Assembly (NCBI GenBank): GCA_035495465.1
Contig: DATJFX010000008.1
Location: forward strand, 1-26,621
Length of the DNA: 26,621 bases
Source: Candidatus Methylomirabilota bacterium
GTDB taxonomy: Bacteria > Patescibacteriota > Doudnabacteria > UBA920 > O2-02-FULL-48-8
Reading direction: 5' to 3'
Part shown: positions 10,651 through 26,526 of the stretch, in pieces
How the letters are laid out: each line of letters starts with the position of its first letter
Position numbering within the stretch: position 1 is the stretch's first letter
The notes under the pieces: model-generated
Database searches by the model: none
Told to the model about the DNA's origin: nothing
Seen by the model: only the letters and a program-made list of their open reading frames with translations
Position numbers and translations under genes: made by a program

Positions 10651-12773
10651 TGTAGTGTCTTGAGAAACTCTTCTACCTCATCTTTCGCTTCAGGCTTGAG
10701 CTCGAGTATTTTTAAGGCAGTAAGCCTGGCGTTTTCCTTATCTCCAGATTCAGCGTAAACTGCCGCCAACTCTGAATAAAGCTGAGGGTCAGATGGATTG
10801 ATTTTAATCTCTCCTTGATATAGAAAAATAACCTTATTATAATCTCTTTTAGCATTAAAATTTCTTATCAATGTATTCAGTATCTGAAACAAATCTGATT
10901 TATTATTACCATCTTTCTGCCAAGCAGAATTTGGATCCGCTGGCACAATTGAGAAAATCTTCGTCAGATCACTATCAATTCCAGCGTAGTCATTATGGAG
11001 TAATTTCAATTTAACCGAAAGCAATAAAAACTCAACCCGACTCGGGACTAATTCTATCGCCTTGTTCAGCGCATCTTCCGATTTACTGACGTACTCTGAA
11101 TAATCTTGGTTCGCCTTGTGTGCCACGGATGCGCGGTAATAATATAAATTTGCGAGTTTAAACCAATACCGGGGATTGTTTTTTATTTCTTCTGTAGCTT
11201 TTACCATTACTGATATGGAGCTATCTAACAAACTCTCTGAAGCAGAGGCGTCTACATTTTTTCCTCCAGCACTCTGTTCGGCAATGGTCCCATAATAAAA
11301 ACCTTTATCAGCTAATTGAACAGTCGGCTTATCAATTGCCTCAACTTTATCCATATATGATTGAATCGAATCGGGACTGGCACTATTTATGGCTTTAGCC
11401 GTATAAAAATTTGCCAGCATGGGGAGCCAATTCCCTGCGTAAGCGACGTAAAGCATTAATAAGCCTGAGATCACTAGTCCGATTTTTGCGATTCCAAAAG
11501 TCTTGGGAATATTTTTATCAATCGATGGTTTGGAATCTTTGAGTGAGTATGACCCTATTAACGCCAATAAAATGACAAAAAATAATAATGAAGAGACAGT
11601 ATCAAATGAAAAAAAATCTTGCGTTATATAGGCTGTGAGACCTGCAATCAAAAATGAAAACCCATACAAATCAATTCTTTTGCCACGGAAAGCGTCATAC
11701 AAAATTTTTATGGCACTTACCAAAATCCCGAGATAAGCCAAGAATCCCAAAATACCCGTGGTTGTCAAAATTTCCAAAAAATAATTATGGGGCTTATCAA
11801 ACCATCCGGGAGTATATTTATAAAGCTGAGGGTCAAAATATTTATCCGCGATCACATAATAATTTTCCGGCCCCACGCCTAGAATTGGTGCGTGCGCAAA
11901 ACCTTTAAGCGCGATCTTCCACTCCACAACCCTAGCCCGTGAATCATTATCTCCGAAATGCAGTCGAGTTACAGCTAGTCCGGCGGCAATTGCAAATAAC
12001 ACGATAATACTAGCCAATATATGGATCCGAAAACGTCTCAGAAAATTGTTCTCACTGAAAATCAAATACACAATCCCCCCGACGAATATTCCGGCTGCCA
12101 ATCCAACATATACTGCTCGCGTTTTAGTTAAATAAACTATTACAAGCTCTAGCACCGCTAAGAATGATAATAATATTTTCCAACCGCGTCTTTTTTCTGT
12201 AATCGCTTGGAGCATCGTTACAAAAATAGGAATTGTGAGAAATGCAGCAAATGTAATAGGATTACCAAATAATCCTGAGATTCTTGACGACGAATCCGGA
12301 TCATTAAAAAAGCCGGGTAAACCTATAGCCAGCCAGAGGGCATACAAACACGCTATTGCGACTGCGGCGATTGATACAGACTTAATTTTCCCTGCTAACT
12401 CCGGCTTGATCTGGAATAGCAATATCAAATAAAAATAAAACAAAACAAAATGCGCCAGATTAAAAATTCCAGTGGCCCGGATCGGAATACCCCAGAAACT
12501 CTGGGACGGATTGACTCCGAAAATTCCCGAGATTACGCTCAGCAAAAAATATGCGATTACTGAAATCGTCAACCAATTGCCAAAATCCGGCCGAAACTTT
12601 CGGCTCGACAGAATCAAATATAAATAAAAAGGCAACGCCGCCTCAATCAAGAGTTGAAAATAAAGCGCCTTGGTGCTTTCAAAAGGATAAACCAAACTCC
12701 GCGAAAAAACCAAGGCGCTAAAACACGCCAAGCTTGCTAACCAGAATAATATTTTTTCGGATTTTTTTTCCAT
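10647..12773 (-). CDS. O-antigen ligase (Wzy_C)-family membrane protein with C-terminal TPR region
   Basis: About 12 TM segments, RISGLFGNP, TKTRA, SRARVVEW...PILGVGPEN...DKPHNYFLE, then helical TPR-like repeats. Confidence 0.85.
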   Translation of the reverse strand: MEKKSEKILFWLASLACFSALVFSRSLVYPFESTKALYFQLLIEAALPFYLYLILSSRKFRPDFGNWLTISVIAYFLLSVISGIFGVNPSQSFWGIPIRATGIFNLAHFVLFYFYLILLFQIKPELAGKIKSVSIAAVAIACLYALWLAIGLPGFFNDPDSSSRISGLFGNPITFAAFLTIPIFVTMLQAITEKRRGWKILLSFLAVLELVIVYLTKTRAVYVGLAAGIFVGGIVYLIFSENNFLRRFRIHILASIIVLFAIAAGLAVTRLHFGDNDSRARVVEWKIALKGFAHAPILGVGPENYYVIADKYFDPQLYKYTPGWFDKPHNYFLEILTTTGILGFLAYLGILVSAIKILYDAFRGKRIDLYGFSFLIAGLTAYITQDFFSFDTVSSLLFFVILLALIGSYSLKDSKPSIDKNIPKTFGIAKIGLVISGLLMLYVAYAGNWLPMLANFYTAKAINSASPDSIQSYMDKVEAIDKPTVQLADKGFYYGTIAEQSAGGKNVDASASESLLDSSISVMVKATEEIKNNPRYWFKLANLYYYRASVAHKANQDYSEYVSKSEDALNKAIELVPSRVEFLLLSVKLKLLHNDYAGIDSDLTKIFSIVPADPNSAWQKDGNNKSDLFQILNTLIRNFNAKRDYNKVIFLYQGEIKINPSDPQLYSELAAVYAESGDKENARLTALKILELKPEAKDEVEEFLKTLQ

Positions 12774-12838
12774 GGGCTGAAGTTTATCTTTCTCTAATAT
12801 CTACTTTAACATGTTATTAACAATCTATAAAGCAAACA

Positions 12839-12864
12839 AAAACCCGCCCTTACGGGCGGGTTTT
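12839..12864 (-). terminator. Intrinsic terminator after the S-layer-like gene
   Basis: AAAACCCGCCC-GTAA-GGGCGGGTTTT on the minus strand, with a GNRA loop and U tract. Confidence 0.85.
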
Positions 12865-12906
12865 GCATCTTACGTTTAAACGAAGATTTCTATTCTTTTT
12901 GGGAGA

Positions 12907-14859
12907 TTAGAAATTCTGGGTCTTGACGTTGGATACTGCTGTAGAGTCAACGTTAGTGATTTGCAATTGTACAAATCCGGCAGTTGAGTTGAACTTCACA
13001 GACAAGGTGCAGCGTTCAGTATCACCAGAAGTGATAGTAAACGATGCAGGTGAACCAGTAGCAGTCATGTCTACGCAACTTACGATACCATCGGTACCGC
13101 CAGATTGTGTAGCACCTGTTAAGGTCCAGTTGATATCACCTGCGCCAGTGGCTGCAGTGCTTTGGTCTTCTTTGATAGTTACATCATCGCTGCCGATGGC
13201 TGTTACGTCAAAAGTAAGACTGATGGTTCCATCAACGCTGTTTGAAGCGTCTTCAGCTGTGAAGTGGTCGGATACAAATTGTACTCCGGCACCTGTGCTG
13301 ATGAATGTTTGTGCATTACCAGCGGCTGAACCATCGACATCGCTGTCGAGGAAGGTATCACCATTGTCATCAACCAAGCTATCACTGAAGTCAGCCCAAT
13401 CAACGGTCAAACTATCACCTTCGGTGAAGTTGTCGATATCGTTGATAGTAGCGTATACACGGTAGGTGCTGGTTGAATCAGCATCAACAGTTTCGTCAGT
13501 ATCCAAGTTGAAGGTAAGGGTACCTGTGTCTCCATCTGCAATGCTTGGAGCATCAGCAGTTGCTAAGGTAGTTGAACCTTTCTTCAATTGGAATTCAGAA
13601 GCTATAGAATCAGAAGTGTCTCCAACAGGGCTTAGATCAAAGTCAACTGTATCGAAGGTCATTGAAGAACCTACGGTTTTGACTTTGAATTCGAGCAACA
13701 AGACATTCTTGGTGGTCGAGGTGTCGGATACTTCTACTGTGTTGGTGTCTGGGTTCGAAGAACCGCGAGAAACCGTTACAGTAACATCACCCTGATCTGC
13801 GATAGTTTCAAAGTGGAATGAGCTATCTGGATCAGTTGTATCGGTGATGATAGCACCCTGAGCATCCATAAATCGGATGCTTGGAGCATCAATGTTCCAA
13901 GTGTTGTTGGAAGCACCGAGGTCTAAGCTGTCGATGTTGGATAGGGCGTTAACAGTAACATAGAAGGTTTCTTTGTTACCTGATCCTTCGCGAACGATAG
14001 CATCGCTATCAAGAGAAATGCTCTTGGAATAGGTTGTACCATCTTTGGTGAAGTCTGAGGCATCTGCAGAACCAACTTTGTTAGAACCTTCGTAAACAGA
14101 AACTGAATCAACATAGTGATCAAGTCTGTTTGAACCATCTGAATCAGTTTGCTGCAATGATACCTTTACGCTCTTTACTGCGATATCAGAATCAGAAGCT
14201 TCAACTTTGAAGCCCAAGACTTTGACATTGCTGGCGCCTTCTGCAACTGAGGTTTCCACATCAGTTGAAGTTGAGGTAACAGTTGCATCACCTGCTCCGC
14301 CGTTCAAAGTGGTGGAACCGGAACTAGAACCAGTAGTACATGCTACGGTCTTAGGGGCTACCATTGAATGAGGGATAGAGCTGGAAGATGTGCTTGCTGT
14401 AATGTTTGCACCGACTGGAAGATCAGCAAAAGTGTTTGCTGGAGCTTCTTTGACGTTTGCAAAGATAAATCCGAGGTCAGTGAAAACTTGACCTGAGACG
14501 AATGGGCGCTTTTCACCACCGACTACTAAGTAGACCAATGGATCTGATGGACCCTTAAGAAGGGTGCCTTCGCCGTAAACCATGACTGGACCGACTGGCA
14601 AAGCGATGTCTTCAGAAGAAGCGGCAACAACTTGCAAGAAGTTGTAACCATTTGTGGTGAAGACGGCTTCGGACGTGAAACCACGTCGGGAATTGTTGGT
14701 GATTAACCAAACAGTGCCACCAGAGAGGACCAAACAACCATCAGAATGAACTGCAGCTGAAGCTACGAGTGGAAGAGCAGCGATGCTGCCGGCCCAAACG
14801 ATTGTAGAAGCGGCTAAGCCGATTGCTACTGCTTTGCGTGCTTTAGAAGATAATTGCAT
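12907..14859 (-). CDS. Secreted acidic surface/S-layer-like protein (650 aa)
   Basis: Sec signal peptide ending ...ASA/AVH. Two ~58-aa N-terminal repeats, then an Asp/Ser/Thr-rich beta-rich body. Has an SD (AGGAG), its own promoter and its own terminator. Confidence 0.7.
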   Translation of the reverse strand: MQLSSKARKAVAIGLAASTIVWAGSIAALPLVASAAVHSDGCLVLSGGTVWLITNNSRRGFTSEAVFTTNGYNFLQVVAASSEDIALPVGPVMVYGEGTLLKGPSDPLVYLVVGGEKRPFVSGQVFTDLGFIFANVKEAPANTFADLPVGANITASTSSSSIPHSMVAPKTVACTTGSSSGSTTLNGGAGDATVTSTSTDVETSVAEGASNVKVLGFKVEASDSDIAVKSVKVSLQQTDSDGSNRLDHYVDSVSVYEGSNKVGSADASDFTKDGTTYSKSISLDSDAIVREGSGNKETFYVTVNALSNIDSLDLGASNNTWNIDAPSIRFMDAQGAIITDTTDPDSSFHFETIADQGDVTVTVSRGSSNPDTNTVEVSDTSTTKNVLLLEFKVKTVGSSMTFDTVDFDLSPVGDTSDSIASEFQLKKGSTTLATADAPSIADGDTGTLTFNLDTDETVDADSTSTYRVYATINDIDNFTEGDSLTVDWADFSDSLVDDNGDTFLDSDVDGSAAGNAQTFISTGAGVQFVSDHFTAEDASNSVDGTISLTFDVTAIGSDDVTIKEDQSTAATGAGDINWTLTGATQSGGTDGIVSCVDMTATGSPASFTITSGDTERCTLSVKFNSTAGFVQLQITNVDSTAVSNVKTQNF

Positions 14860-15229
14860 TGTATTCTCCTGTTTATAAAATCATCAGCGGATTAATTATT
14901 CATATGAGACAATCAATACGCCGGACAATTAAATAAACATTGTTTAATATTACGGAACTATCCTAAATAGGACGTATTAACTGTTAAAAATTAATAACAA
15001 AGACCGACCAGGCTATACTTTCGTAAAAACCACAGTGTCTTTAAAACAGTTAAGAGTTCCAATTGCTAAGACGCACGTTTATCCAGCTTGTTACAAGATG
15101 GATAAACCCTCAAGAAATCTCACAAATCGCCAAAAAACTCATAAAAAACACCACAATACACTTATATTGAGGTTGTTTGTTTAGGCTATTTATTTGATGA
15201 TCTTGGGTGATATTTCATTGAGTATCCAC

Positions 15230-15258
15230 ATTATAAACTAAACTTCGATTTTTGTCAA
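15230..15258 (-). promoter_or_regulatory. Consensus sigma70 promoter for the S-layer-like gene
   Basis: Perfect TTGACA-N17-TATAAT, implying a 5' UTR of about 365 nt. Confidence 0.85.
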
Positions 15259-15334
15259 GCTAATAATTTCCTAACGCATTTCTTATCTGGTTTGATAATA
15301 AGCCCTTTTTTTGATAAGATTGCATCTGAATCCG

Positions 15335-15408
15335 GCGGGATTTGTATAATGGTAGTACGAGACCCTTCCAAGGTCTAGGCACCGGTCCGATTCCGGTATC
15401 CCGCTCCA
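15335..15408 (+). tRNA. tRNA-Gly(TCC)
   Basis: GCGGGAT/ATCCCGC acceptor stem, AGACC-CTTCCAA-GGTCT anticodon arm, ACCGG/CCGGT T stem, encoded CCA. Confidence 0.95.
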
Positions 15409-15536
15409 AAAAAAACGTCACTAAAAGAACTTAAATATTATCCACAGGTAAATTGATAGGCGTGGATAGTTAGATATTTTTATCAACACTATTGTGAATA
15501 TCGGCCTTTTTCTATATACTTACCTGGTTGCGACGA

Positions 15537-15610
15537 CGGGGTGTCGTATACCGGTAGTACGTCTGCTTTGGGAGCAGATAGACTGGGTTCAATTCCCAGC
15601 ACCCCGACCA
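15537..15610 (+). tRNA. tRNA-Pro(TGG)
   Basis: CGGGGTG/CACCCCG acceptor stem, TCTGC-TTTGGGA-GCAGA anticodon arm, CTGGG-TTCAATT-CCCAG T arm, encoded CCA. Confidence 0.96.
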
Positions 15611-15650
15611 AGAAGAAACTTTAACTATTAACTTGTAATTTACAACTCTA

Positions 15651-15851
15651 ATGGCAGTCCCTAAAAAACATAAGACAAGGTCAGGCAGAAATCAACGCAG
15701 ATCCCACGATCACCTGAAAGCATCGAGCCTTTCTGTATGTAAAAATTGTAATTTCCCTGTTCGTCCTCATGAAGTTTGCCAAAACTGCGGTTTTTACAAA
15801 GGCCGGCAAGTGATAAAAATGAAGAACCCGAAATCCAAAGCCAGGAAGTAA
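15651..15851 (+). CDS. rpmF: 50S ribosomal protein bL32 (zinc-ribbon form)
   Basis: MAVPKKHKTRSGRNQRRSH...CKNC...PHEVCQNCGFYKGRQV. Confidence 0.96.
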   Translation: MAVPKKHKTRSGRNQRRSHDHLKASSLSVCKNCNFPVRPHEVCQNCGFYKGRQVIKMKNPKSKARK

Positions 15852-15878
15852 AAATTAGAATTAAATTTAAAACTTTCC

Positions 15879-16346
15879 ATGGCAAATCGGCATTTGTCCA
15901 GAACAGTTGCGATGCAATCCCTCTATGAGTGGGACTTTAATGATCGCCATGGCGCCTTGCTGACAGTGGCCGAACGCAATGTCAAACAGTTTGCGCCGGG
16001 ATTGGAAGACACGGGATTTATCTTTGATTTGATTAAAGGCGTAAATAAAAACCTCCCGGAAATCGATAAAGTCATAGTCCAAACCGCCCCGGAATGGCCA
16101 TTGGATCAGATCACTGTGATTGATCGCAATATTTTGCGCCTGGGCATTTATGAACTGCTATTTGCGAAAAAAGTTCCGCCGAAAGTCGCGATCAATGAGG
16201 CGGTGGAACTCGGCAAAGCTTTTGGCGGCGAATCCAGCGGAAAATTTGTAAATGGTGTACTCGGCACTTTATATAAACAACTACCCGAGGAAGAACGTTT
16301 AGCTGGAGAGACCCCACAAGCTGAAAAAACTTCTAAGCAAGAATAA
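15879..16346 (+). CDS. nusB: Transcription antitermination factor NusB
   Basis: [43 protein letters not shown]...FVNGVLG. Confidence 0.96.
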
Positions 16347-16361
16347 ATTTTAATAACCTAC

Positions 16362-16637
16362 ATGAATAAACAAGAACTAATTGACGCACTGAGCTTAAAG
16401 CTCAATCTGGGTAAAACTGAAGCCGAAAACACACTCCATGGCTTTGTGGAAGTAATCACTGAAACCTTAAAAGCCGGTCAGGAAGTAAACATCTCTGGAT
16501 TCGGTTCTTTCGTAGTCACTCCCCGTTCCGCTAGGATGGGCGTAAATCCCCAAAACCCTACGGAAAAAATCCAAATCCCAGCCACCAAAGTTCCGAAATT
16601 CCGCGCCGGTAAAAACCTAAAAGAAGCAGTTAGATAA
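16362..16637 (+). CDS. hup: DNA-binding protein HU
   Basis: MNKQELI...GFGSF...R.GVNPQ...IPATKVPKFRAGKNLKEAV. Confidence 0.95.
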   Translation: MNKQELIDALSLKLNLGKTEAENTLHGFVEVITETLKAGQEVNISGFGSFVVTPRSARMGVNPQNPTEKIQIPATKVPKFRAGKNLKEAVR

Positions 16638-16644
16638 TCTTATT

Positions 16645-16676
16645 TGCCACTTTTCTTTCTAGAAAGAAAAGTGGCA
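16645..16676. repeat. 32-bp perfect palindrome downstream of hup
   Basis: TGCCACTTTTCTTTCT|AGAAAGAAAAGTGGCA. Confidence 0.9.
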
Positions 16677-16689
16677 GGAAAAGAAAGTC

Positions 16690-16777
16690 GGAAATTTGCC
16701 GGACTCGGAACGTGTTACGCTTGTCGACAAGGACCAATCTAACCGGATTTTAGTCGCTCGGACAGCGGCAAATTTCC
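16690..16777. other. Element D: stem-enclosed structured intergenic segment (candidate ncRNA)
   Basis: 12-bp perfect stem GGAAATTTGCCG/CGGCAAATTTCC enclosing 64 nt that contain small hairpins, followed by a terminator. Confidence 0.45.
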
Positions 16778-16784
16778 ATAATTT

Positions 16785-16807
16785 AAAACCCCTATTATAG
16801 GGGTTTT
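16785..16807. terminator. Bidirectional intrinsic terminator
   Basis: AAAACCCCTAT-T-ATAGGGGTTTT, between the convergent hup block and the small-gene island. Confidence 0.75.
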
Positions 16808-16820
16808 ATTTCTTATATTT

Positions 16821-16925
16821 AGGCGAAGGCAGTTGCTTGGAGGAGATTTGCGAGGCCCTTCCAATGGCCGAGCACATAGTCCGCCCGAAGCGGACGTCTC
16901 CGAGAAGCAGCTGCCTTCGCCTTTT
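16821..16925 (+). ncRNA. Structured element A1 (candidate novel ~102-nt ncRNA, copy 1)
   Basis: Homologous to 20168-20271 with at least 7 compensatory base-pair changes. Has a U.G pair and tandem G.A pairs on the + strand and a 3' U tract. Confidence 0.7.
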
Positions 16926-17016
16926 CTCTCAACTGTCGGCGAACAGGAGATTCAATCATTTTTTTCAAAATTATTGAATTCGCCGACAGATGAGAGAGCG
17001 GGAATGACAGTTGCTG

Positions 17017-17268
17017 TCACTCCCGCTTATGAAACGCCGCGACGTTATTTACGTTTTGGCGTTCTTGGGCAGGGGCCTGATGGGCCCTTTCTTCTGCCCG
17101 TAACCGGCGCTGATGCCGGCGAATTTGGCGCCGATAGCTCAACACAATTGGCACACCCATCGCCAGCCCAAAGAGAACAGTGGCACTCGCCTCCAATGTC
17201 TTCTGAGGGCTCATATAGAACCCCAAGCACCAGAGGAGGGCGACAACCAAGGTCAGCCATGATTTCAT
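17017..17268 (-). CDS. Small two-TM membrane protein with basic C-terminal tail (83 aa)
   Basis: MKSWLTLVVALLWCLGF... with SD GGGAG and ATGA coupling to the upstream gene. The longer ORF-track start (17460) was rejected. Confidence 0.75.
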   Translation of the reverse strand: MKSWLTLVVALLWCLGFYMSPQKTLEASATVLFGLAMGVPIVLSYRRQIRRHQRRLRAEERAHQAPAQERQNVNNVAAFHKRE

Positions 17269-17471
17269 GCCACTCCCCTGTGGATGGCTGTGAACACCGC
17301 CCAGATGACGCCTCCGCCGAAAATCATGGCGGTGACGCAAACCTGCCAGATGAGTTCGTCCAGGTTTTCGGACAGCCACTTGGCGGCCGGCCCGTCCTTG
17401 AGACGGATCACGACCGCGAACTTGCTTGACTCGATCTTTTTTTCCACCACGGGCGTCCAAACTACGGTCAT
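17265..17471 (-). CDS. Small hypothetical protein with C-terminal TM helix (68 aa)
   Basis: SD GAGGTG 5 nt before the ATG; hydrophobic C-terminus. Confidence 0.75.
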   Translation of the reverse strand: MTVVWTPVVEKKIESSKFAVVIRLKDGPAAKWLSENLDELIWQVCVTAMIFGGGVIWAVFTAIHRGVA

Positions 17472-17541
17472 AATATCACCTCATTCACCCTCGCCTTTCG
17501 GCTGGGCGATACACGAGTTGACGACGACTATATCCGACTTG

Positions 17542-17631
17542 CCCGTCTCTTAACTCGAACCCTAACATTATGTAAACATTTGTTCAAGCTAACAGACGGG
17601 AGGAGGACAACTTCTTGCAAGTCATCCTCCC
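17542..17631 (-). other. Element C: two abutting hairpins between gene modules, carrying the shared leader motif
   Basis: GGGAGGATGAC/GTCCTCCTCCC, then CCCGTCT..TTAGCTTGAAC/GTTCGAGTTAA..AGACGGG. The G.U pairs favour the minus strand. Confidence 0.55.
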
Positions 17632-17638
17632 TATCTTT

Positions 17639-17887
17639 TCATTGTGCTCCTCCTTGTGAAGCATGCTCTGGTTTCTTGCCCGTGATCCGCAACGTGGGAC
17701 CTTTCGGTCCGATCATCATCACGCGCGCTTCTCCGCGCCGCAGAAACTGGATCGCGAGCGTGTCGGGATAGGGATATCCCAGATCTTCGACGATCCGATC
17801 CCGGATCTGCTCCTTCGACTCCGAACCGTTGATGATGGCCAGGACCCGATCTTGCACGATTGCGACGGAGAGATCTCTGTACTTCAT
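17639..17887 (-). CDS. Small hypothetical protein (82 aa)
   Basis: ATG overlaps the upstream stop, with GGAGG upstream and protein-like composition. Confidence 0.75.
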   Translation of the reverse strand: MKYRDLSVAIVQDRVLAIINGSESKEQIRDRIVEDLGYPYPDTLAIQFLRRGEARVMMIGPKGPTLRITGKKPEHASQGGAQ

Positions 17888-18075
17888 TTTTCCTCCAGGA
17901 TGGCGAGTTCCTGACGAAACTCCTCACACACATAGATTAGAATCCCGAGTTCGTCCGCCTGCTGTTCCACCGTGAGCAGATCGGAATGACCCAACTTCTC
18001 GATGGCCAGCTGCAACGCCGCGATCTTCCTCTTGAGCAATGCTTTCCTGTATTCTCGCCTTTTTCTTCCAAACAT
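17884..18075 (-). CDS. Small helical/coiled-coil hypothetical protein (63 aa)
   Basis: SD GGAGGTG 4 nt before the ATG; heptad-like Leu/Ile pattern. Confidence 0.75.
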   Translation of the reverse strand: MFGRKRREYRKALLKRKIAALQLAIEKLGHSDLLTVEQQADELGILIYVCEEFRQELAILEEK

Positions 18076-18110
18076 TCTTCACCTCCGCCTTTCGGCTGAA
18101 AAAAAGAACT

Positions 18111-18401
18111 TCACTTGGCGCAGTCAGGAATTGAGCCGCCGTCTTCGTAACGGCGTTCAATCTCACTGGCACAGATCCCAAATGGAATCAGAATTTCTTG
18201 GACCTTATCCAGATCCAGGAAACCTGAAGCCTTGGCTTGCTCGCGCAGAGCCTGAGTGGCATGGTCAGCGCGATCTGAATTGCGCTGTCTCGCCTGGCTA
18301 AACACGCGATCCCGCGATCCGCTACGCTGGACCAGCAGGATTAATATCATCAAGGTCCCCAATCCGAGGACCGCCAGGATCTTTCTTCTATTTTCACTCA
18401 T
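18111..18401 (-). CDS. Small bitopic membrane protein (96 aa)
   Basis: RRK followed by hydrophobic ILAVLGLGTLMILILLV; SD GGAGG. Confidence 0.75.
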   Translation of the reverse strand: MSENRRKILAVLGLGTLMILILLVQRSGSRDRVFSQARQRNSDRADHATQALREQAKASGFLDLDKVQEILIPFGICASEIERRYEDGGSIPDCAK

Positions 18402-18420
18402 CGATCCTCCGATCGAGTTT

Positions 18421-18529
18421 AAGGGAACATTCCCTTCCTAAATATTCTATCCTTAGAAAACTTAGGAAGGGAGGGAGTTTTAAGGGTTTACCAATCAAGG
18501 TGTCCAATAAAACTCTCCATCTTCTACTT
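18421..18529 (+). repeat. Structured repeat B1 (core 18465-18529)
   Basis: 65-nt core matches 19367-19431 at 64/65 positions; the 5' stem is conserved in structure. Confidence 0.9.
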
Positions 18530-18536
18530 ACTCCTC

Positions 18537-18803
18537 CTACTTCTTCCAATCCTTGCACCCACCCGGCACGACCGCCATAGAGGTTCCCTGATAGATCATG
18601 CTGGTGTAGATCAGGTTCCCCGAAAGCATGTCACAGGTGGCGACAATCGACCCAGTGCCCATGGTCGGAACCTCGTATCTATAGACCTTGGGCGCCGACT
18701 GCTCGACATACGCTTGTGTGTCGGTCGGCGCAGTACTGCAGGCCGACGTTAATCCAAGACATATTGCGATGCCACTAACCTTTTTCCAATTCCAACGGAA
18801 CAT
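18537..18803 (-). CDS. Small predicted lipoprotein (88 aa)
   Basis: Basic N-terminus, hydrophobic stretch, lipobox-like LTSA|C; SD GGAGGTG. Confidence 0.7.
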   Translation of the reverse strand: MFRWNWKKVSGIAICLGLTSACSTAPTDTQAYVEQSAPKVYRYEVPTMGTGSIVATCDMLSGNLIYTSMIYQGTSMAVVPGGCKDWKK

Positions 18804-18843
18804 CTCTCACCTCCGCGCTTCCGCGCTGGAAAAAGCAGAAAAT

Positions 18844-19029
18844 CTACTGAAAGAACCGCATGAACCAGCTGGAGATCGCTCCCCATTTGGCCCACACAAT
18901 CGCCGAGACGAACCCCAGCATTCCGAGGTTCATCATCACGCCCACAGCAAGGACGAATGACTGAGTGTCCTCACGCAGATACTTCTGCAACGGGCTCAAT
19001 CCCGTTTCGTTCGGATCAGGGATGTGCAT
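18844..19029 (-). CDS. Small single-TM protein (~61 aa)
   Basis: SD AAGGAG; hydrophobic FVLAVGVMMNLGMLGFVSAIVW. The start could be 19029 or 19032. Confidence 0.75.
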   Translation of the reverse strand: MHIPDPNETGLSPLQKYLREDTQSFVLAVGVMMNLGMLGFVSAIVWAKWGAISSWFMRFFQ

Positions 19030-19065
19030 CATCAACTCCTTGCGCCTAGGCGCTGGAAAAGGAAA

Positions 19066-19299
19066 TTAGTGCCTGCCGCGGCCACCGGGCCAGAGTGGCC
19101 CGAGCATCCGTCGGAAGGCATAGATGACGATCCCCAGCAACAACGCCGGGCCGATGATCGACGAGACAAAGTTCTCGATCTTACTGAGAACCATGTAACG
19201 GAAATCCTCGGACAGAACCATCATCGCCACGAGGACGATGAGGACCGTGCGTAGTGCCCGCTGCGGCGAACCGAAGAAAAACTCAATCCAAGCCTGCAT
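19066..19299 (-). CDS. Small two-TM membrane protein (77 aa)
   Basis: SD AAGGAGG 4 nt before the ATG; two hydrophobic helices, each flanked by Arg. Confidence 0.8.
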   Translation of the reverse strand: MQAWIEFFFGSPQRALRTVLIVLVAMMVLSEDFRYMVLSKIENFVSSIIGPALLLGIVIYAFRRMLGPLWPGGRGRH

Positions 19300-19319
19300 G
19301 AGGCCTCCTTAGGTATATC

Positions 19320-19431
19320 AGGGAAACCATTTCCCTTCCGATAAGATCTAAATTTTAAATCTCATTGGAAGGGAGGGAGTTTTAAGGATTTACCAATCAA
19401 GGTGTCCAATAAAACTCTCCATCTTCTACTT
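19320..19431 (+). repeat. Structured repeat B2 (core 19367-19431)
   Basis: Second copy of B1, in the same position immediately after a module's last stop codon. Confidence 0.9.
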
Positions 19432-19625
19432 TACTTCCTCCTGGTAATCTCTCTTGCTCTTGGCGGTGGCACCACGAACTCCACTTCGAGACCGAGTCCA
19501 GTGGCGTGGCTGACAATCAGCTTGCCGATCGCCTCATCGGATGTACGACCAGCCTCCCACTTGCCCTTTTGATTTGCCAAGCAGGCATGCCAGTCATCTG
19601 AGCGCTTGGTCACAACGATTTTCAT
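19431..19625 (-). CDS. Small protein with possible HicB/UPF0150-like fold (64 aa)
   Basis: SD GGAGGTG. WHACLANQKGKWEAGRTSDEAIGKL resembles the HicB pattern y.a....G....G.T.eEA..nl. Confidence 0.5.
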   Translation of the reverse strand: MKIVVTKRSDDWHACLANQKGKWEAGRTSDEAIGKLIVSHATGLGLEVEFVVPPPRAREITRRK

Positions 19626-19653
19626 CTTACACCTCCGCCAAGTGTTGGAACTC

Positions 19654-19791
19654 TTACTTCTGGAAAATGCTTCGGCACTCGTAGAATGCCTTCCAGCATT
19701 CCTTGCCGATCCAGGCGGACACCGGGTTCCGTGGGCGAAAAATCATCAACCACACCATAACCCCGATAAACACGATCTGGAAATAAGCCAT
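19654..19791 (-). CDS. 45-aa hydrophobic peptide (below the ORF-track cutoff)
   Basis: Manual translation MAYFQIVFIGVMVWLMIFRPRNPVSAWIGKECWKAFYECRSIFQK*. SD GAGGTG; fills the gap between its neighbours. Confidence 0.75.
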   Translation of the reverse strand: MAYFQIVFIGVMVWLMIFRPRNPVSAWIGKECWKAFYECRSIFQK

Positions 19792-19828
19792 CTTTCACCT
19801 CTTGCCCATTGGGCTGAAAACGAACTTG

Positions 19829-20023
19829 TTACTTCGCCAACTTGTCGAGAGTCCGGGAGTCGATCTCGATGGGCTGAATCCAGATCTCACGTCTGACCCC
19901 GGCCGCTTTGTGAAGCTGCTGGGTAGTCGGCAGAAGCGCCTCGGCGACGTCTTGATGCAGGTACACGGTCGAGCTCGCCAACTCTTGAAGATTGTTGGCA
20001 TAAACCATAACGTAACCTTTCAT
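19829..20023 (-). CDS. Small hypothetical protein (64 aa), first gene of the island
   Basis: SD AAGGAG before the ATG at 20023 (MKGYVMVY...). Confidence 0.7.
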   Translation of the reverse strand: MKGYVMVYANNLQELASSTVYLHQDVAEALLPTTQQLHKAAGVRREIWIQPIEIDSRTLDKLAK

Positions 20024-20167
20024 GACTATCTCCTTGAAAACTGTGGGAAGCAACTTGCTTCCACAACCCTGAACACTTAGGTAAACTTTAGAGCAACAAT
20101 ATTTCTCTGTGTTACAACATTAAGTATTCAGAATAGTAGAAACAATTTTTCACTTTCTCTTCTCTTT

Positions 20168-20271
20168 AGGTGAGGCCTGCTGCTTCGAAGAGAATTGCGA
20201 GGACCTTCCAATGTCCGAGCTCTTAGTCGCCCTCAGGCGACGTCTCTGAGAAGCAGCAGGCCGAACCTTTT
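20168..20271 (+). ncRNA. Structured element A2 (candidate novel ncRNA, copy 2)
   Basis: Covarying homolog of A1, with three tandem G.A motifs on the + strand and a 3' U tract. Confidence 0.7.
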
Positions 20272-20472
20272 CCTTCCACAATTCTGGAAGCTTATCCAAC
20301 TGCTGGGGCGCAATTATATAATTTCGCCGCTTAGTCGGACAACCCTCCCAGAACTCTGGAAACAAAATAGCTCCCTTTCAGGAGCTATAGGTAAAATGTA
20401 TGTGAAATTTGCTACGTGCCCATTCGGTCCTGAACGAATAGGTACGACTATTCATTTTTTAAACAACTCATA

Positions 20473-20501
20473 AGTATACTCCTAAAAACCGATCTTGTCA
20501 A
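20473..20501 (-). promoter_or_regulatory. Sigma70-type promoter P1 driving the small-gene island
   Basis: TTGACA-N17-TATACT. Confidence 0.85.
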
Positions 20502-20511
20502 TAGATAACCC

Positions 20512-20540
20512 AAAAAAGAGGCTTAGGTTAGCCTCTTTTT
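20512..20540 (-). terminator. Intrinsic terminator of groES-groEL-GxxExxY
   Basis: AAAAAGAGGCT-AACCTA-AGCCTCTTTTTT. Confidence 0.85.
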
Positions 20541-20580
20541 GCCGCTAATATACACGAATACTGAACGAATTTACACTAAT
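20541..20580. repeat. Left imperfect inverted repeat of the GxxExxY element
   Basis: GCCGC-TAAT-nn-ACAC-GAAT-ACTGAA-CGAAT-nn-ACAC-TAAT, matching the reverse complement of 20983-21028. Confidence 0.75.
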
Positions 20581-20978
20581 TTGAAAGGTTTTCGATTATT
20601 GGTAAAAATAACTCTTTTTACCATAAGTTGAGAAGAAGCAAAATTTATTAGATAAGCTAGCTCGTATTCACTATTTCGTAAATAATCATAAAGACGTTTC
20701 AGCTCCTCATTTGATACAAATTTTTCAGCCTTTAGCTCAACTATAATTTTATCGTCAACAATAAAGTCAGGCCGATAAAGCCCGACTTTTTGTCCATCTT
20801 TTGGAGAATAAATATTTACACTTGGCTCTTTTACGAACTGAATTTTACGACGCCCGAATTCTTGAACCAACGCAGTTTGATATAATTTTTCTTTATGCCC
20901 CGGACCGAAATCTTTCCGCACTTCAATAGCCGCCCCATGAATCAAATACGATAATTCCTTATGTAATAATTCAGCCAT
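20571..20978 (-). CDS. GxxExxY protein (PD-(D/E)XK-like putative nuclease)
   Basis: FGPGHKEKLY (GxxExxY), RPDFIVDDKIIVELKA, YL...LINF. Confidence 0.93.
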   Translation of the reverse strand: MAELLHKELSYLIHGAAIEVRKDFGPGHKEKLYQTALVQEFGRRKIQFVKEPSVNIYSPKDGQKVGLYRPDFIVDDKIIVELKAEKFVSNEELKRLYDYLRNSEYELAYLINFASSQLMVKRVIFTNNRKPFKLV

Positions 20979-20982
20979 CCAA

Positions 20983-21028
20983 GTTCGTGTTCGTGTCTAT
21001 TAGTTTAATATTAGTGTCGATTCGCGGC
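20983..21028. repeat. Right imperfect inverted repeat of the GxxExxY element
   Basis: Reverse complement is GCCGC-GAAT-nn-ACAC-TAAT-ATTAAA-CTAAT-nn-ACAC-GAAC. Confidence 0.75.
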
Positions 21029-21029
21029 C

Positions 21030-22700
<1,671 letters not shown>

Positions 22701-22973
22701 TTATTGTACTATCCCGAGGATGTCCTCGTCTTTTAAAAATTTATGTTCGACCCTATCGATTTCTACATCATCACCAGCGTATTTACCAAACATTACTTTC
22801 TGTCCGACTTTCAAATTTAGTTTTCCAATTTTTTCCCCTGTTCCAATCGCAACTACCTCTCCTAAAGCTTTCTCTTTATCTTCTGAAGTGGCGATGACAA
22901 TACCCGATTTGGTGGTGTTCTCTATTTTACTGGGCTTAACCAAGATGCGGTCGCCCACTGGTTTAATATCCAT
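22701..22973 (-). CDS. groES: Co-chaperonin GroES
   Basis: IKPVGDRILV, TKSGIVI, GEVVAIGTG, VGQKVMFGKYAG, EDILGIV. Confidence 0.98.
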   Translation of the reverse strand: MDIKPVGDRILVKPSKIENTTKSGIVIATSEDKEKALGEVVAIGTGEKIGKLNLKVGQKVMFGKYAGDDVEIDRVEHKFLKDEDILGIVQ

Positions 22974-23029
22974 ATATTCCTTTCGGTTAAAAAAATGTCC
23001 GTTCGGACATTTTGTTTTTGCTACAACTT

Positions 23030-23058
23030 ATTATAAAATTTTTTTCAGTCCCTGACAA
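23030..23058 (-). promoter_or_regulatory. groESL promoter
   Basis: TTGTCA-N17-TATAAT. Confidence 0.75.
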
Positions 23059-23074
23059 GGCCCCTAAAATGACG

Positions 23075-23101
23075 AAAACCGGCAACGCAAGCGCTGCCGG
23101 T
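23075..23101 (-). terminator. Terminator of the 119-aa orphan gene
   Basis: ACCGGCA..TGCCGGT stem followed by a T run on the minus strand. Confidence 0.65.
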
Positions 23102-23110
23102 TTGTGTACC

Positions 23111-23470
23111 CTACCACCGAGGTTCTCGGCGATAGGTTTGAGCGATCTGGTCGCTCATCTCCGCAACAATCGCCGTGGCGGCGATATCGCGAAGAATCGT
23201 CCGGCCTCCGTCATACTTACTGACGTAGGCCCCACAGTGCACCTCATAGAGCGAGGTACGACTGCGGTCCGACCGAACATTCGCCAAACCACTGGCGATG
23301 ATCAGTCCCAGCGTCTGTGGGCGCAACTTCCGCACACGTCGATGAACAACGTTTGCGGCTTGCTCCCAAAGATACTGAGCCGCAGGCTCGGTGAAGCCAT
23401 GCTCACGGATGAGATCCGCGGCAATGCGCTGCACGAGCTTCGGACGAGACGACGGGTTGGTGTTGGTCAT
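23111..23470 (-). CDS. Hypothetical protein (119 aa), GC-rich orphan
   Basis: SD AAGGAG, own promoter and terminator; no family recognised. Confidence 0.75.
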   Translation of the reverse strand: MTNTNPSSRPKLVQRIAADLIREHGFTEPAAQYLWEQAANVVHRRVRKLRPQTLGLIIASGLANVRSDRSRTSLYEVHCGAYVSKYDGGRTILRDIAATAIVAEMSDQIAQTYRREPRW

Positions 23471-23694
23471 GGGACACTCCTTCTCTGACGGCCAGCCGCA
23501 AGGATCAACCTATCAGCGACATGCTGATAAGCTCCTTACTGCTCGAACTGATGAACAATTGTGTTAACTTTAGACAAACAACATTTAATGGGTTAACTTC
23601 AACTACTCACAGTGGAGCGTTTTCAGCTAGTCTTTCAGGGTATTCCGTGACCTTCACGGTTTTTTAAACTTCCTCCATTTTTCACGAACTCCAA

Positions 23695-23723
23695 AGTATA
23701 AATTAAAAAGCCTTGGTTGTCAA
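23695..23723 (-). promoter_or_regulatory. Sigma70-type promoter P2 (twin of P1)
   Basis: TTGACA-N17-TATACT. The -35 box lies inside the AAGCCTTG/CAAGGCTT-T5 terminator hairpin of the upstream gene. Confidence 0.85.
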
Positions 23724-23729
23724 GGCTTA

Positions 23730-23760
23730 GACTGCCACGCCCGCTTCGCGGGCTCGCAGA
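23730..23760. repeat. REP-like palindromic element
   Basis: GACTGCCACGCCCGC-TTC-GCGGGCTCGCAGA, with a GCGAAGC mini-hairpin on the minus strand. Confidence 0.55.
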
Positions 23761-23767
23761 TACTATA

Positions 23768-24748
23768 TTATTTAGTTTCTATTATTCTCTTAAATCGCTC
23801 AGCTATCTCGGCGCGGACGTCGTAGCCATGGAGTTTGAGCATGGAAGAGTTGGCAATCGTAGTCGAAGTAAGGCCGCGATTTTCTGCGAGTTTAAAGGTA
23901 TGGTTGATATGGATGCGCCTGAAAAATGGTTCAGCTAAGCTCACGGGTAACCAAAGTAAAACTTCCAAAATATATTTGATACTCAAAACTATAAAGGAAG
24001 GCTTTTTGGCGGAAGCAAACCTTTGAGTTGGCTCGAAATTTGGAAAAGCTTGGGTCAGCCAAGGATTTTTCTGCATCAATTGCCAATATGCCTGGCTCCC
24101 CACCACCGGACGCATATTCGCCAGCCAAAAATCAAAATATGGATCCTCAGGTTTCAGCTTTAAAGATTCAAATTCTAAATTATCTGTGGTGGTATAAAAC
24201 CCAAAACAAAACCGATCCTTAATCTTCTGCCGAGTTTTATACACTCCTAAACTCCGAAATAATACAATAATTAATGACCTAACAAAATAAAGGCGATTTG
24301 GCTTCGTGATGACGAAAAAATCAATATCTGAATCCGCATCAGATGTACCCAGCGACAAACTATTGATCACTGAGATATTCCGAACAAACGGCAATACAGC
24401 TAGCCAATTAAAATATCGGTCAATTTTCTCCCATTTTTTTATGAGTTCTAATTGATTGGCCTGGTAAGTGGCGGCATTCCATGATTTCAGAGAATATAGG
24501 TTATCTTTTTGCAAAACTTGGCCACTGACAACTAAATTCCCTAAAGTTTCAGTTACCTGGGGGAGGCTTACGAACTCGCCGTATAAAAGTTCGTGAACGC
24601 GTCTACTGGAGAGCGGTAATTCATACAAAGAAAAAAACGCTAACGTCTTTAGCACTGCTTGTTCTAATTTCACTTGAGTTTTAGTTTCGGCCGACGCTTC
24701 GGTCGGCCCCCCGACCGAGTTATCGCGTCGGGGCAATATTTCCGGCAT
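23768..24748 (-). CDS. Hypothetical protein with Pol-beta-like nucleotidyltransferase motif
   Basis: INSLSLGTSDADSDIDFFVI (h[NG]S-x9-DxD). The start may instead be the GTG at 24673. Confidence 0.65.
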   Translation of the reverse strand: MPEILPRRDNSVGGPTEASAETKTQVKLEQAVLKTLAFFSLYELPLSSRRVHELLYGEFVSLPQVTETLGNLVVSGQVLQKDNLYSLKSWNAATYQANQLELIKKWEKIDRYFNWLAVLPFVRNISVINSLSLGTSDADSDIDFFVITKPNRLYFVRSLIIVLFRSLGVYKTRQKIKDRFCFGFYTTTDNLEFESLKLKPEDPYFDFWLANMRPVVGSQAYWQLMQKNPWLTQAFPNFEPTQRFASAKKPSFIVLSIKYILEVLLWLPVSLAEPFFRRIHINHTFKLAENRGLTSTTIANSSMLKLHGYDVRAEIAERFKRIIETK

Positions 24749-25073
24749 CTATTTCCTTCCATGTATCATTATAATCATCCCATTTGTAAGCTTTAATTTT
24801 GTGCGAAAATTCTGTGTCAGAAAATTTATACTCTACTCGGGCCGATTTGCCTTGTTGGTGAGAATAAATTTCTTTTTTGTCCAAAACCACGGGTTTGGAC
24901 TCCCGAGTAAGTTTGATTTTACCCAAAGGCGTAGGAAAAATTAAAATTTCAACTTTGCCTGAAACCACCGGCCCATCCCCGGTTTCCATAATCAAATCCT
25001 CAAAGCCTTCTTCTTCAACTTTGAACTTGCGGTGCAATTCTTCTTTTAACGCTTCCCACTTGTCGTCTTGCAT
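24720..25073 (-). CDS. Hypothetical protein (117 aa)
   Basis: Uninterrupted ORF with host-like composition in operon-like spacing. Confidence 0.75.
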   Translation of the reverse strand: MQDDKWEALKEELHRKFKVEEEGFEDLIMETGDGPVVSGKVEILIFPTPLGKIKLTRESKPVVLDKKEIYSHQQGKSARVEYKFSDTEFSHKIKAYKWDDYNDTWKEIDAGNIAPTR

Positions 25074-25081
25074 GTTAACTT

Positions 25082-25474
25082 CTATTCTTCTTCTCCCCTT
25101 GCGGGAGAAGATGTCCGACTTCGTCGGACAGATGAGGGGTTAAAAAGTGCGTTAAATATTTTTTCCTTTACTATCGACAAATGATTAGTGATATCATCGT
25201 TCCAAAACCTCAATACCTTAAACCCAGACTTTTCGAGATAATCTTGTCTTATTTTATCTTTTAATTTCTGGGAATCGGAATTATGAGTACCACCATCTAA
25301 TTCTATTACTAATCGTTTTTTTAGGCAACAAAAATCAACAATATATTGATCTATGGCAACCTGTCGACGAAATTTAAAATTACCAAACCGCCGCCCTTGC
25401 AATAAGAACCAAAGTATCTTTTCTTCAGGGGTTGATTGTTTTCTTAAATTTCTTGCAAAGGCTTGATCTTGCAT
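25082..25474 (-). CDS. DUF559 / Vsr-like endonuclease domain protein
   Basis: ARNLRKQSTPEEKILW, KFRRQ, YIVDFCC, LVIELDGGTH, D..R..YLEKSGFKVLRFWN. Start trimmed to the ATG at 25474. Confidence 0.93.
   Translation of the reverse strand: MQDQAFARNLRKQSTPEEKILWFLLQGRRFGNFKFRRQVAIDQYIVDFCCLKKRLVIELDGGTHNSDSQKLKDKIRQDYLEKSGFKVLRFWNDDITNHLSIVKEKIFNALFNPSSVRRSRTSSPARGEEE
25089..25140 (-). repeat. Double-hairpin repeat, left flank of the DUF559 gene
   Basis: CCCCTCATC-TGTCCGAC/GTCGGACA-TCTTCTCCC/GGGAGAAGA. Confidence 0.8.
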
Positions 25475-25480
25475 AAATAG

Positions 25481-25535
25481 CACCCTCACCTGTCTCCGCA
25501 TTTGCGGAGACATCCTCTCCCGTCAAGGGAGAGGA
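25481..25535 (+). repeat. Double-hairpin repeat, right flank of the DUF559 gene (inverted relative to the left)
   Basis: CACCCTCACC-TGTCTCCGC/GCGGAGACA-TCCTCTCCC/GGGAGAGGA. Confidence 0.8.
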
Positions 25536-25547
25536 AAAATTGAAAAC

Positions 25548-26465
25548 TTATTTCTGACAAAATGGACAATATGAGCTCGTACGACCCCCTAATTTTAAAC
25601 TTTTAATAACTCTACCACAAACTTTACATTTCTCCCCAGCGCGGCCATAAACCATGTGAATTTTCCCATATGTGCCCCAATCCCCCGAAGGCCTGACAAA
25701 ATCTCCGACGGATGAACCATGATGATGGACTGCGTCTGTTAAAACTTTTTTTATACCCTTAAATAAAAGCTTGCGTTCTTTAGAATTTAAAGTTTTAACC
25801 AAGCGCATGGGCCGAACTTTTGCGTAAAACATTATTTCATCCGAATAAATATTGCCGATCCCCGCAATTAAATTCGGATCAAGTAAAAATTGCTTAAGCT
25901 TTGCTTTTGGCCTTTTCTTTAAAATCGACTCGAAAACTTCCAAAGTAAATTTATCGTCCAGCGGTTCTGGTCCGTACTCCGCAAGTTCCGGAACATGCGG
26001 CAGCTCTTTATCGGAAACCAATTTCAAATACCCAAACTGACGAAAGTCATTGTAAAAAAGTCTGGAGCCGTCAGTAAACTCAAAAATCACATGCGTGGAT
26101 TTGGCTGGCAGACGAACTGGAATGGTATTCTGAATATTTAAAAGTTTAACTTGCTTGTCTAAATATTTTTTACCTAGAAAAATTAGTTGGCCGGTCATTT
26201 TCAGATGAACTAGAATGGCATATTTGCCAGCTAAATCCATAATAATCATTTTCGCCCGGCGAGAAACATCTGTGAATTTTTTGTGCTTTAAAGTTTTCGC
26301 AAAAGCTTTAGCAGCCTCTTCTGAAGGCTTGCGAAGATTCGACAAAGTCCCCGGACCCATGGCGACCATTTTCGGCATCAGGATTCGGACTTCCTTGATA
26401 ACTTTATTTCTCAGTAGCGGCCGCAGTTCCCTGACTACTGTTTCGACTTCGGGTAGCTCTGGCAT
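25548..26465 (-). CDS. mutM: Formamidopyrimidine-DNA glycosylase
   Basis: MPELPEVET N-terminus, RRAK, HLKMTG, D.RQFG, LGPEP-like YGPEP, AGIGNIYSDE, and a C-terminal CxxC..CxxC finger. Confidence 0.97.
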   Translation of the reverse strand: MPELPEVETVVRELRPLLRNKVIKEVRILMPKMVAMGPGTLSNLRKPSEEAAKAFAKTLKHKKFTDVSRRAKMIIMDLAGKYAILVHLKMTGQLIFLGKKYLDKQVKLLNIQNTIPVRLPAKSTHVIFEFTDGSRLFYNDFRQFGYLKLVSDKELPHVPELAEYGPEPLDDKFTLEVFESILKKRPKAKLKQFLLDPNLIAGIGNIYSDEIMFYAKVRPMRLVKTLNSKERKLLFKGIKKVLTDAVHHHGSSVGDFVRPSGDWGTYGKIHMVYGRAGEKCKVCGRVIKSLKLGGRTSSYCPFCQK

Positions 26466-26487
26466 GGGGTAATTATAGCAAAAACAA

Positions 26488-26514: not shown

Positions 26515-26526
26515 AAAATTTTATAG

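Follow-up and report, generated by a model that had tools for sequence, protein, structure and literature searches.

Why should one arrangement of a U run, a tiny GC hairpin and a strong ribosome site stand in front of one unrelated gene after another? The question is raised by contig DATJFX010000008.1 (C8; its full length of 26,621 nucleotides is the window throughout), part of a 562-kb, 82% complete genome of Candidatus Doudnabacteria (Candidate Phyla Radiation (CPR)/Patescibacteria) with 42% GC. The window contains a GC-rich island of 11 small open reading frames (ORFs A-K), tightly packed on the minus strand, and an initial annotation had pointed to five sites in it where a U tract, a CA, a mini-hairpin and a Shine-Dalgarno sequence (SD) lead up to an ATG. 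We find that these sites represent a unit that is conserved, portable and linked to a single gene pool. We call this unit the cassette and its individual copies modules, each named after the gene that follows.

Direct reading of the minus strand confirmed the five sites as annotated, including the 13-mer CAGCCGAAAGGCG common to the last two (modules H and J, starts 18075 and 17471). Their architecture had been called fixed; all five indeed combine a hairpin with an SD, but the U tract is present at four and absent at site 17471. At these four, whose hairpins begin at 19814, 19053, 18826 and 18096, a T run is followed by (C)CA and an all-G/C stem of 3-4 bp with a 3-4-nt loop. The SD lies 0-2 nt further on and the ATG 3-4 nt past it (SD core to start 6-11 nt over the wider set). 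In module J the hairpin-adjacent SD serves a 2-codon ORF, while the real start at 17471 is served by a second SD. Nor were the five sites the full set: a sixth, degenerate copy before the ATG at 19625 had been missed. The four U-tract modules begin 12-17 nt past the upstream stop codon, and the other internal junctions are ATGA overlaps.

The cassette recurs beyond chance. A descriptor search of the island's minus strand (3123 nt) found hairpin, SD and start together five times and the strict form with T tract four times; the plus strand gave neither. In 3000 first-order Markov simulations of the island the means were 0.22 and 0.003, respectively, and none reached five. Both strands of the whole 562-kb genome (1.125 Mb) held 17 sites with hairpin, SD and start, and the T tract occurred only at the four island ones. 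The genome-wide check proposed with the initial annotation thus came out in its favour, the motif standing only before small orphan ORFs in a single island, with neither core genes nor simulated sequences showing it.

A covariance model (R1), built from 13 copies and trained on family sequences, was then run over whole genomes at E<=0.01. It matched 9 of the 24 other family genomes in addition to the window's own, and outside the family it gave one borderline match in 121 genomes from five other families of the order. Every match above 30 bits was a copy in the island downstream of groEL, with nothing comparable elsewhere in those genomes. The shorter pattern GCGC..GCGC..GAGGT matched about as often as its reversed control in 146 genomes of the order, and the full architecture appeared only in the family's island matches.

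The genes behind the cassette are unrelated, as had been stated for five of them; this now extends to 17 ORFs in 11 genomes, among which no mutual similarity was detectable. None of the 11 island ORFs of the window had a significant Pfam or PHROG match, and Pfam found no match among the relatives' island ORFs either. ORF F, the single island ORF searched against 5.8e9 proteins, had no homologue besides itself, and tblastn of the window's island ORFs against the relatives' islands gave no matches. The cassette is kept across about 10 genera, while the adjoining coding sequences have diverged beyond recognition. Many module-led ORFs begin with a signal-peptide-like or lipobox-like segment, and the ORF downstream of module F is a predicted lipoprotein.

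The island genes also differ from the rest of the genome in how they are started. An SD precedes all 11 island genes; it is at least 5 nt long in 8 of the 11 and is the 7-nt GGAGGTG in three. Of 21 starts of core genes in the window, a single one is preceded by a strong SD, and the majority lack an SD. Genome-wide, a 4-nt SD core lies before the first ATG of 13% of ORFs of at least 200 amino acids (6% in a control window), and a strong SD in 5%. The 16S tail of a relative (G021) ends GATCACCTCCTTTCT, and the SDs GGAGGTGA (modules F and H) and GGAGGTG (module C) are complementary to its ...UCACCUCC; the 16S gene is missing from the assembly of the window's own genome. These data suggest two translation-initiation regimes in one genome, in which the cassette would bring in a signal largely absent from the host's own genes. 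Core genes mostly lacking an SD include those for PilB/PilC, glycosyltransferases, NusB, HU and Fpg (window positions 1-16800 and 20300-26621).

Where does the cassette come from? Ahead of gene A lies a full-length leader (Table 1), a conserved element of ~95 nt with the inverted repeat ACTATTCTGAATACTTAA ... CTAAGTATTCAGAGTTGT. It is conserved in at least eight genera, occurs one to several times per island and always stands ahead of orphan genes (20055-20149, minus strand, in the window; L009, L010, L011, L012, L013, L014 and L015 in relatives). The leader has no Rfam match and could be a structured 5' untranslated region or an operator. In eight relatives its conserved end, ...CCCAGARTTGTGGAAGYAAC(AG)AAGTTCTTTT, directly precedes a GC hairpin and an SD. 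The window's A>B junction, GTTGGCGAAGTAACAAGTTCGTTTTCA, aligns to leader tails (G006, G002, G013), with the stop codon of gene A inside the GAAGTAA motif, and the B>C and G>H junctions have the same GAAGTRA-AGTTC arrangement. Because these three junctions match the leader tail, the window's intercistronic modules are trimmed leader tails, and this origin accounts for the conservation of AGTTC. Homology of the modules to the 3' tail of this multi-copy leader, found at the head of the relatives' orphan-gene units, lends real support to one of the options initially offered, a relic cassette junction. In two genomes of one genus, homology spans the leader and ends at the tract and hairpin, beyond which both the hairpins (CACC/GGTG versus CGGA/TCCG) and the genes differ.

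As a separate observation, 5 of the 11 island ORFs end in AAG-stop (Lys-stop) within a GAAGTAA-like motif resembling the leader tail GTGGAAGTAA (19829-19831, 19654-19656, 19431-19433, 18537-18539 and 18111-18113). Incoming ORFs would seem to take over a stop codon that the junction provides.

Table 1. Island, leader and modules in the window. Parts are given in 5' to 3' order of the minus strand.
Feature	Coordinates	Strand	Upstream parts	Tract and hairpin	SD, spacer and start	R1 (bits)
GC-rich orphan island	16934..20157	minus	11 small same-strand ORFs A-K, 45-96 amino acids; holds all modules			
Full-length leader ahead of gene A	20021..20149	minus	conserved ~95-nt element, long inverted repeat 20149-20055, then hairpin GTGGAAGCAAGTTGCTTCCCAC	AGTTTTCA, directly abutting the SD; no mini-hairpin	AAGGAG; ATG 20023	
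Module B with leader-tail remnant	19789..19850	minus	GTTGGCGAAGTAAC (end of gene A, stop TAA 19831-19829), then AAGTTCGTTTTCA	TTTTCA; GCCC-AAT-GGGC 19814-19804	AA+GAGGTG, GAGGTG at 19801-19796; AAAG; ATG 19791	37.1
Degenerate sixth module, before gene C	19623..19660	minus	GAAGTAA (stop of B 19656-19654), GAGTTC	CCAA-CAC-TTGG 19648-19638, then C	GGAGGTG 19636-19630; ATG 19625	
Module E	19027..19069	minus	stop TAA of D, TTTCCTTTTCCA	TTTTCCA; GCGC-CTAG-GCGC 19053-19042	AAGGAG 19041-19036; TTG; ATG 19032, second ATG 19029	34.1
Module F	18801..18842	minus	stop TAG of E, ATTTTCTGCTTTTTCCA	TTTTTCCA; GCGC-GGAA-GCGC 18826-18815	GGAGGTG 18814-18808; AGAG; ATG 18803	40.4
Module H	18073..18114	minus	CCAAGTGA (stop of G), AGTTCTTTTTTTCA	TTTTTTTCA; GCC-GAAA-GGC 18096-18087	GGAGGTG 18086-18080; AAGA; ATG 18075	31.3
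Atypical module J	17469..17518	minus	CGCCCA	no U tract; GCC-GAAA-GGC 17502-17493	SD1 GAGGGTG; 2-codon ORF ATG AGG TGA 17484-17476; SD2 GAGGTG 17482-17477; ATG 17471	

What, then, might the cassette do? We tentatively favour a self-contained RNA expression cassette, in which an insulated, strong ribosome site would be joined to a probable point of processing and 5' protection; that the cassette is non-random, confined to the island, family-wide and placed before unrelated ORFs is counted for this reading, as are its homology to the leader tail and the contrast with an SD-poor host. The sites are copies of the ribosome-site-proximal tail of the multi-copy leader that heads orphan-gene units. The full form reads (GAAG-TAA/TGA), AGTTC, U run, (C)A, a GC-clamped hairpin of 3-5 bp, an SD (GGAGGTGA type, 6-8 nt, complementary to the 3' tail of the 16S rRNA), a spacer of 4-7 nt and AUG. 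It would provide each orphan cistron with a maximal SD in a genome mostly without SDs, and the U run and closed mini-hairpin would hold that SD in a defined local context, shielded from the GC-rich flanking coding RNA. Under RNase Y/J decay (no RNase E, no Rho), the U run 5' of the hairpin would be the likely zone of endonucleolytic cleavage, after which the hairpin and the ribosome-occupied SD would protect the new 5' end of the downstream cistron. We infer these RNA-level activities (cleavage, stabilisation and an effect on translation).

A hairpin and a strong, ribosome-bound SD at the 5' end are the two known protections against the 5' exonuclease RNase J. The decay enzymes of the family fit a role of this kind. 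RNase Y was found in four of four near-complete relatives, RNase J in five of five and RNase III in four of four. Neither the RNA-binding domain of Rho nor the catalytic domain of RNase E/G was found in any of five Doudnabacteria genomes (G000, G007, G009, G012 and G021; four at least 95% complete), and a 4-domain S1 protein was present in these genomes. To judge from this repertoire, RNA decay appears to be of the Bacillus type, and the RNase processing or stabilising role suggested initially is compatible with it. In B. subtilis, RNase Y sites are AU-rich and poorly structured, with U at -2/-3, often with structure just downstream and with a preference for cutting at G|A (PMC11780869). At the sae site of S. 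aureus the position of the cut is set by a downstream duplex, and the downstream fragment is stabilised (PMC5449607). The modules have the U run and the downstream hairpin; the window reads UUUCA, and UUUUGA, which offers G|A, occurs in only two relatives.

Several observations weigh against the expression cassette. The G|A mismatch at the window's UUUCA is one, and RNase Y was found only in relatives and not in the window's own 82% complete genome. Mini-hairpins of 3-5 bp are marginal as exonuclease blocks. The hairpin is moreover dispensable in some units, since units without it exist: in gene A and several relatives' genes the U/C run directly abuts the SD and cannot pair with it. Stem sequences had been said to vary, which holds for the three stem types of the window, but the stems seen overall (GCCC/GGGC, GCGC/GCGC, GCC/GGC, GCGCC/GGCGC, CACC/GGTG, CGCG/CGCG and CGGA/TCCG) are mostly GCGC in relatives. 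In a model-fitted alignment the count of covarying apical-stem pairs was no different from that in shuffled or slid controls, and the relatives' first copies had come from a perfect-stem descriptor.

The cassette might instead hide the ribosome site. The pyrimidine tract would then be the 5' arm of a hairpin that pairs with the SD through G-U, A-U and C-G pairs and is nucleated by the GC clamp; such a weak, fourU-type attenuator would be opened by a ribosome terminating on the upstream gene and so couple translation. In predicted minimum free energy structures (RNAfold), 11 of 15 modules have the tract paired to the SD side. In module J CGCCC lies opposite GGGUG, a lone G facing a lone U, and in module H GUUCUUU lies opposite GAAGAAU; the short distance from the upstream stop to the window's U-tract modules would suit coupling. 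However, permutations of the 14-nt tract fold more stably than the native order (mean z +0.56, Stouffer Z +2.36); tract-SD pairing is therefore a by-product of composition rather than optimised, and we reject a selected pairing. When 50 nt of context is folded too, the tract faces the SD side in about 10 of 18 modules, pairs with upstream purines in 4 and is ambiguous in several others; predicted SD accessibility lies anywhere from 0.03 to 0.75. Relatives' modules mostly follow a leader rather than an ORF, and in the hairpin-less units the U run, flush against the SD, is unable to pair. SD occlusion without any sign of selection is possible, but we regard the attenuator as unlikely. According to the folding models the native tract looks as if it were kept weakly structured, which fits a single-stranded entry or cleavage zone. 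In another reading, improbable in our judgement, the cassette would form the output end of an RNA switch with three parts, within a lineage-specific expression system for fast-evolving orphan genes. In such a switch the U/C tract would have two alternative partners. One is GTGGAAG, an SD look-alike in the leader tail, which in the window incorporates the upstream gene's stop codon; the other is the true SD, GGAGGTG, reached across the clamp hairpin. Whether the next orphan gene is translated would then depend on termination by the upstream ribosome or on a factor acting on the ~95-nt leader. If this were true, an SD-poor CPR bacterium would run a separate SD-dependent channel for hypervariable small secreted and membrane proteins.

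Other explanations start from the DNA or from descent. A leader tail of ~35-60 bp might serve as a homology patch for swapping orphan genes, much like the promoter early stem-loop (PeSL) elements of phages (PMC2839356, PMC4122927), with the RNA features secondary. Island gene content is wholly different between genera while the junction persists, homology in the two same-genus genomes ends at tract and hairpin, in the window the leader-derived GAAGTAA contains the ends of three upstream genes, and 5 of the 11 island ORFs have the AAG-stop ends noted above. Yet the scanned ORFs in and beside the island include no recombinase or integrase, within-genus islands are too diverged for any genome pair to show exchange, and the module lacks the promoter and terminator of a PeSL. 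A homology patch also leaves unexplained why hairpin complementarity persists with different stems (GCCC/GGGC, CACC/GGTG, CGGA/TCCG). We consider a mainly DNA-level junction rather unlikely as the explanation, although the junction and RNA readings are not exclusive. A neutral relic, that is, remnants of duplicated leaders with no function beyond an ordinary SD, would agree with the homology to the leader tail, the non-significant covariation and the missing signs of tuned pairing. It seems doubtful, given that the cassette has been retained over about 10 genera despite diverged coding sequences and that the window has lost the rest of the leader and yet kept tract, intact hairpin and perfect SD four to six times. 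Very improbable, finally, is a Nus-factor site, with AGTTCTTTT as a boxA-like and the GNRA-type mini-hairpin as a boxB-like part, acting in NusB/S10 antitermination or in steric repression of the ribosome site as at suhB. GTTCTTT matches the first seven positions of the gamma-proteobacterial boxA consensus GYTCTTTAANA, and the E. coli suhB boxA lies 6 nt from its SD (PMC5725501); four modules have GAAA or GGAA loops, and nusB lies at the far end of the island. Against this, positions 8-11 are unmatched (modules read TTTT, TTGA or GTTT), Rho was not found in five of five genomes, and the loops are highly diverse (AAT, CTAG, CATGA, TTAAGT and others). What the 16S leaders share in G021, G007 and G012 is CGCCAGTT(T/C) and not the module motif, the spacers having GRTCTTT only, and homology to the leader tail already accounts for the motif.

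A number of further candidates were rejected. An intrinsic terminator had been denied from the start, and rightly so: on the minus strand the U run lies 5' of the hairpin, the plus strand reads hairpin then TGAAAAA, and a scan predicted no terminator-like or promoter-like site at any module. Protein recruitment, which had also been suggested, is unsupported, the loops being too variable, and a CsrA-type site (GGA in the loop plus SD) was dropped with GGA in one loop only. The modules are too small for a ribozyme, and the window's island has no Rfam ribozyme match. An integron cassette array does not fit either, since the junction hairpins measure 10-13 nt and lie against the next SD, versus 55-140-nt attC sites after ORFs; no integrase or recombinase was found among the window's 20 larger ORFs and the scanned island ORFs. 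A phage origin of the island was rejected after blastn against 50,697 phage records gave no match.

Is the cassette a member of a known system? The closest published concept is the start-associated sequence (SAS) and extended SAS (ESAS) of Cluster K mycobacteriophages (PMC3203893). There, too, a stereotyped short sequence that includes the ribosome site stands just 5' of the starts of some unrelated genes in one orientation, and in about half of the phage copies it is directly preceded by inverted repeats whose spacer varies. The genes led by SAS are mostly non-structural, and its authors suspected a role in translation (PMC3203893). However, the phage sequence is GGGATAGGAGCCC (13 bp, 3-8 nt before starts) with 17-bp inverted repeats, in 11-19 copies per phage genome, whereas the module lies in a chromosomal CPR island, has a 3-5-bp GC hairpin and a U run and descends from a longer leader. 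We reject SAS/ESAS membership: GGGATAGGAGCCC is absent from the modules, and the architecture alone is alike. The PeSLs of T4-type phages resemble the modules in that conserved motifs on either side of small orphan ORFs in hyperplastic regions outlast the exchange of the genes (PMC2839356, PMC4122927). A PeSL joins a promoter to a terminator stem-loop, neither of which was found at any module, and the module is defined by its ribosome site; PeSL membership is rejected as well. By sequence and composition the module belongs to neither class.

Two known RNA devices that invite comparison are 5' stabilisers such as the STAB-SD of B. thuringiensis cry3A and the aprE leader, and the fourU RNA thermometer of Salmonella agsA. 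As in STAB-SD, modules carry an SD extensively complementary to the 3' end of the 16S rRNA (judged by the relative's 16S tail); stabilisation of the downstream RNA is putative. The likeness to fourU is a U run that, within a hairpin, can bind the SD by weak U-G and U-A pairing. The modules differ in that this pairing is no better than with shuffled tracts and inconsistent between copies, and their organism lives in groundwater with no obvious temperature cue. As at the RNase Y maturation sites of Firmicutes (cggR-gapA, saePQRS), an AU/U-rich unstructured stretch is closely followed by structure (PMC5449607, PMC11780869). A fragment cut at a module would, like those with Firmicutes 5' stabilisers, start with a hairpin and a very strong SD, and the enzymes needed are present in the family. 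The sae duplex has 24 bp versus a stem of 3-5 bp here, the G|A preference is unmet in the window, and known RNase Y sites are not repeated, stereotyped cassettes; cleavage at the modules is putative.

The present case provides a family-wide, syntenic example with a defined minimal cassette. CPR bacteria are uncultured, and their hypervariable orphan genes, which here encode mostly small membrane, lipoprotein and secreted products, are prime candidates for host interaction. The conserved leader and ribosome-site cassette marks such an orphan gene pool across about ten genera and offers a handle for finding these genes. The cassette also points to a two-tier translation, with SD-less core genes versus SD-driven island genes, and may be read as a compact natural design for an insulated ribosome site.

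The island itself has a GC content of about 49-59% over ~16.9-20.2 kb (54% overall) versus 30-45% in the flanks. groES-groEL lies upstream of it, and several further genera of the family have syntenic GC-rich orphan islands at this place between groEL and nusB. A consensus promoter, TTGACA-N17-TATACT, is found at 20501-20473, upstream of the island. A second contig (JGI sample 3300045391) carries the island too, and its independent gene calls agree exactly for 9 of the 11 ORFs; A and B were given other starts there, and K is uncalled. Structured repeats of ~120 nt bracket the island (16811-16933 and 20158-20279; 77% identical), each with a 26-bp outer stem around two small hairpins. This repeat is dispersed, with at least six further copies on C63, C40, C67, C54, C6 and C47 and copies in many family genomes, and has no Rfam match. 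Over the whole window Rfam reports two tRNAs only at gathering score, and a permissive scan of 16600-20600 gave generic hairpin (miRNA-precursor) noise alone.

Several smaller features were noted in and around the islands. About half of the mini-hairpins have an AUG at the junction of loop and 3' stem, which opens an ORF of 2-7 codons ending at a UGA in or just after the SD. In the window these lie at 19796-19810, where the module B hairpin carries AUG GGC AAG AGG UGA, and at 17476-17484, and in relatives at G007a, G001a/b, G006a/b and G009b. The hairpin AUGs may be meaningful or may be a by-product of A/U-rich loops ahead of G-starting stems. Ahead of genes D and G lies a 65-nt repeat (18430-18529 and 19331-19431, minus strand; 98% identical). 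Both copies contain the same ORF of 10 codons (MESFIGHLDW-stop), which has an SD of its own and precedes a CCCTCCCTTCC...GGAAGGGA hairpin; the arrangement looks like a leader-peptide device. The hairpin type GGAAGGGAAAT.GTTTCCC recurs before SDs in relatives (L049 12677, L056 7563, L058 13093). Just upstream of the island leader of one relative (G006, L015:5313-5368, plus strand) there is a candidate hammerhead ribozyme of type III, which has three stems and retains the CUGAUGAG...CGAAA core intact. Its RF00008 score of 38 bits (E 7.7e-7, 400 nt searched) falls short of the gathering score, 48.5, and no counterpart was found in the window's island. In another relative (G007:C11:1887-5013) the 16S gene spans 3.1 kb versus a model of 1.5 kb, which implies large insertions, a known trait of rRNA genes in CPR bacteria.

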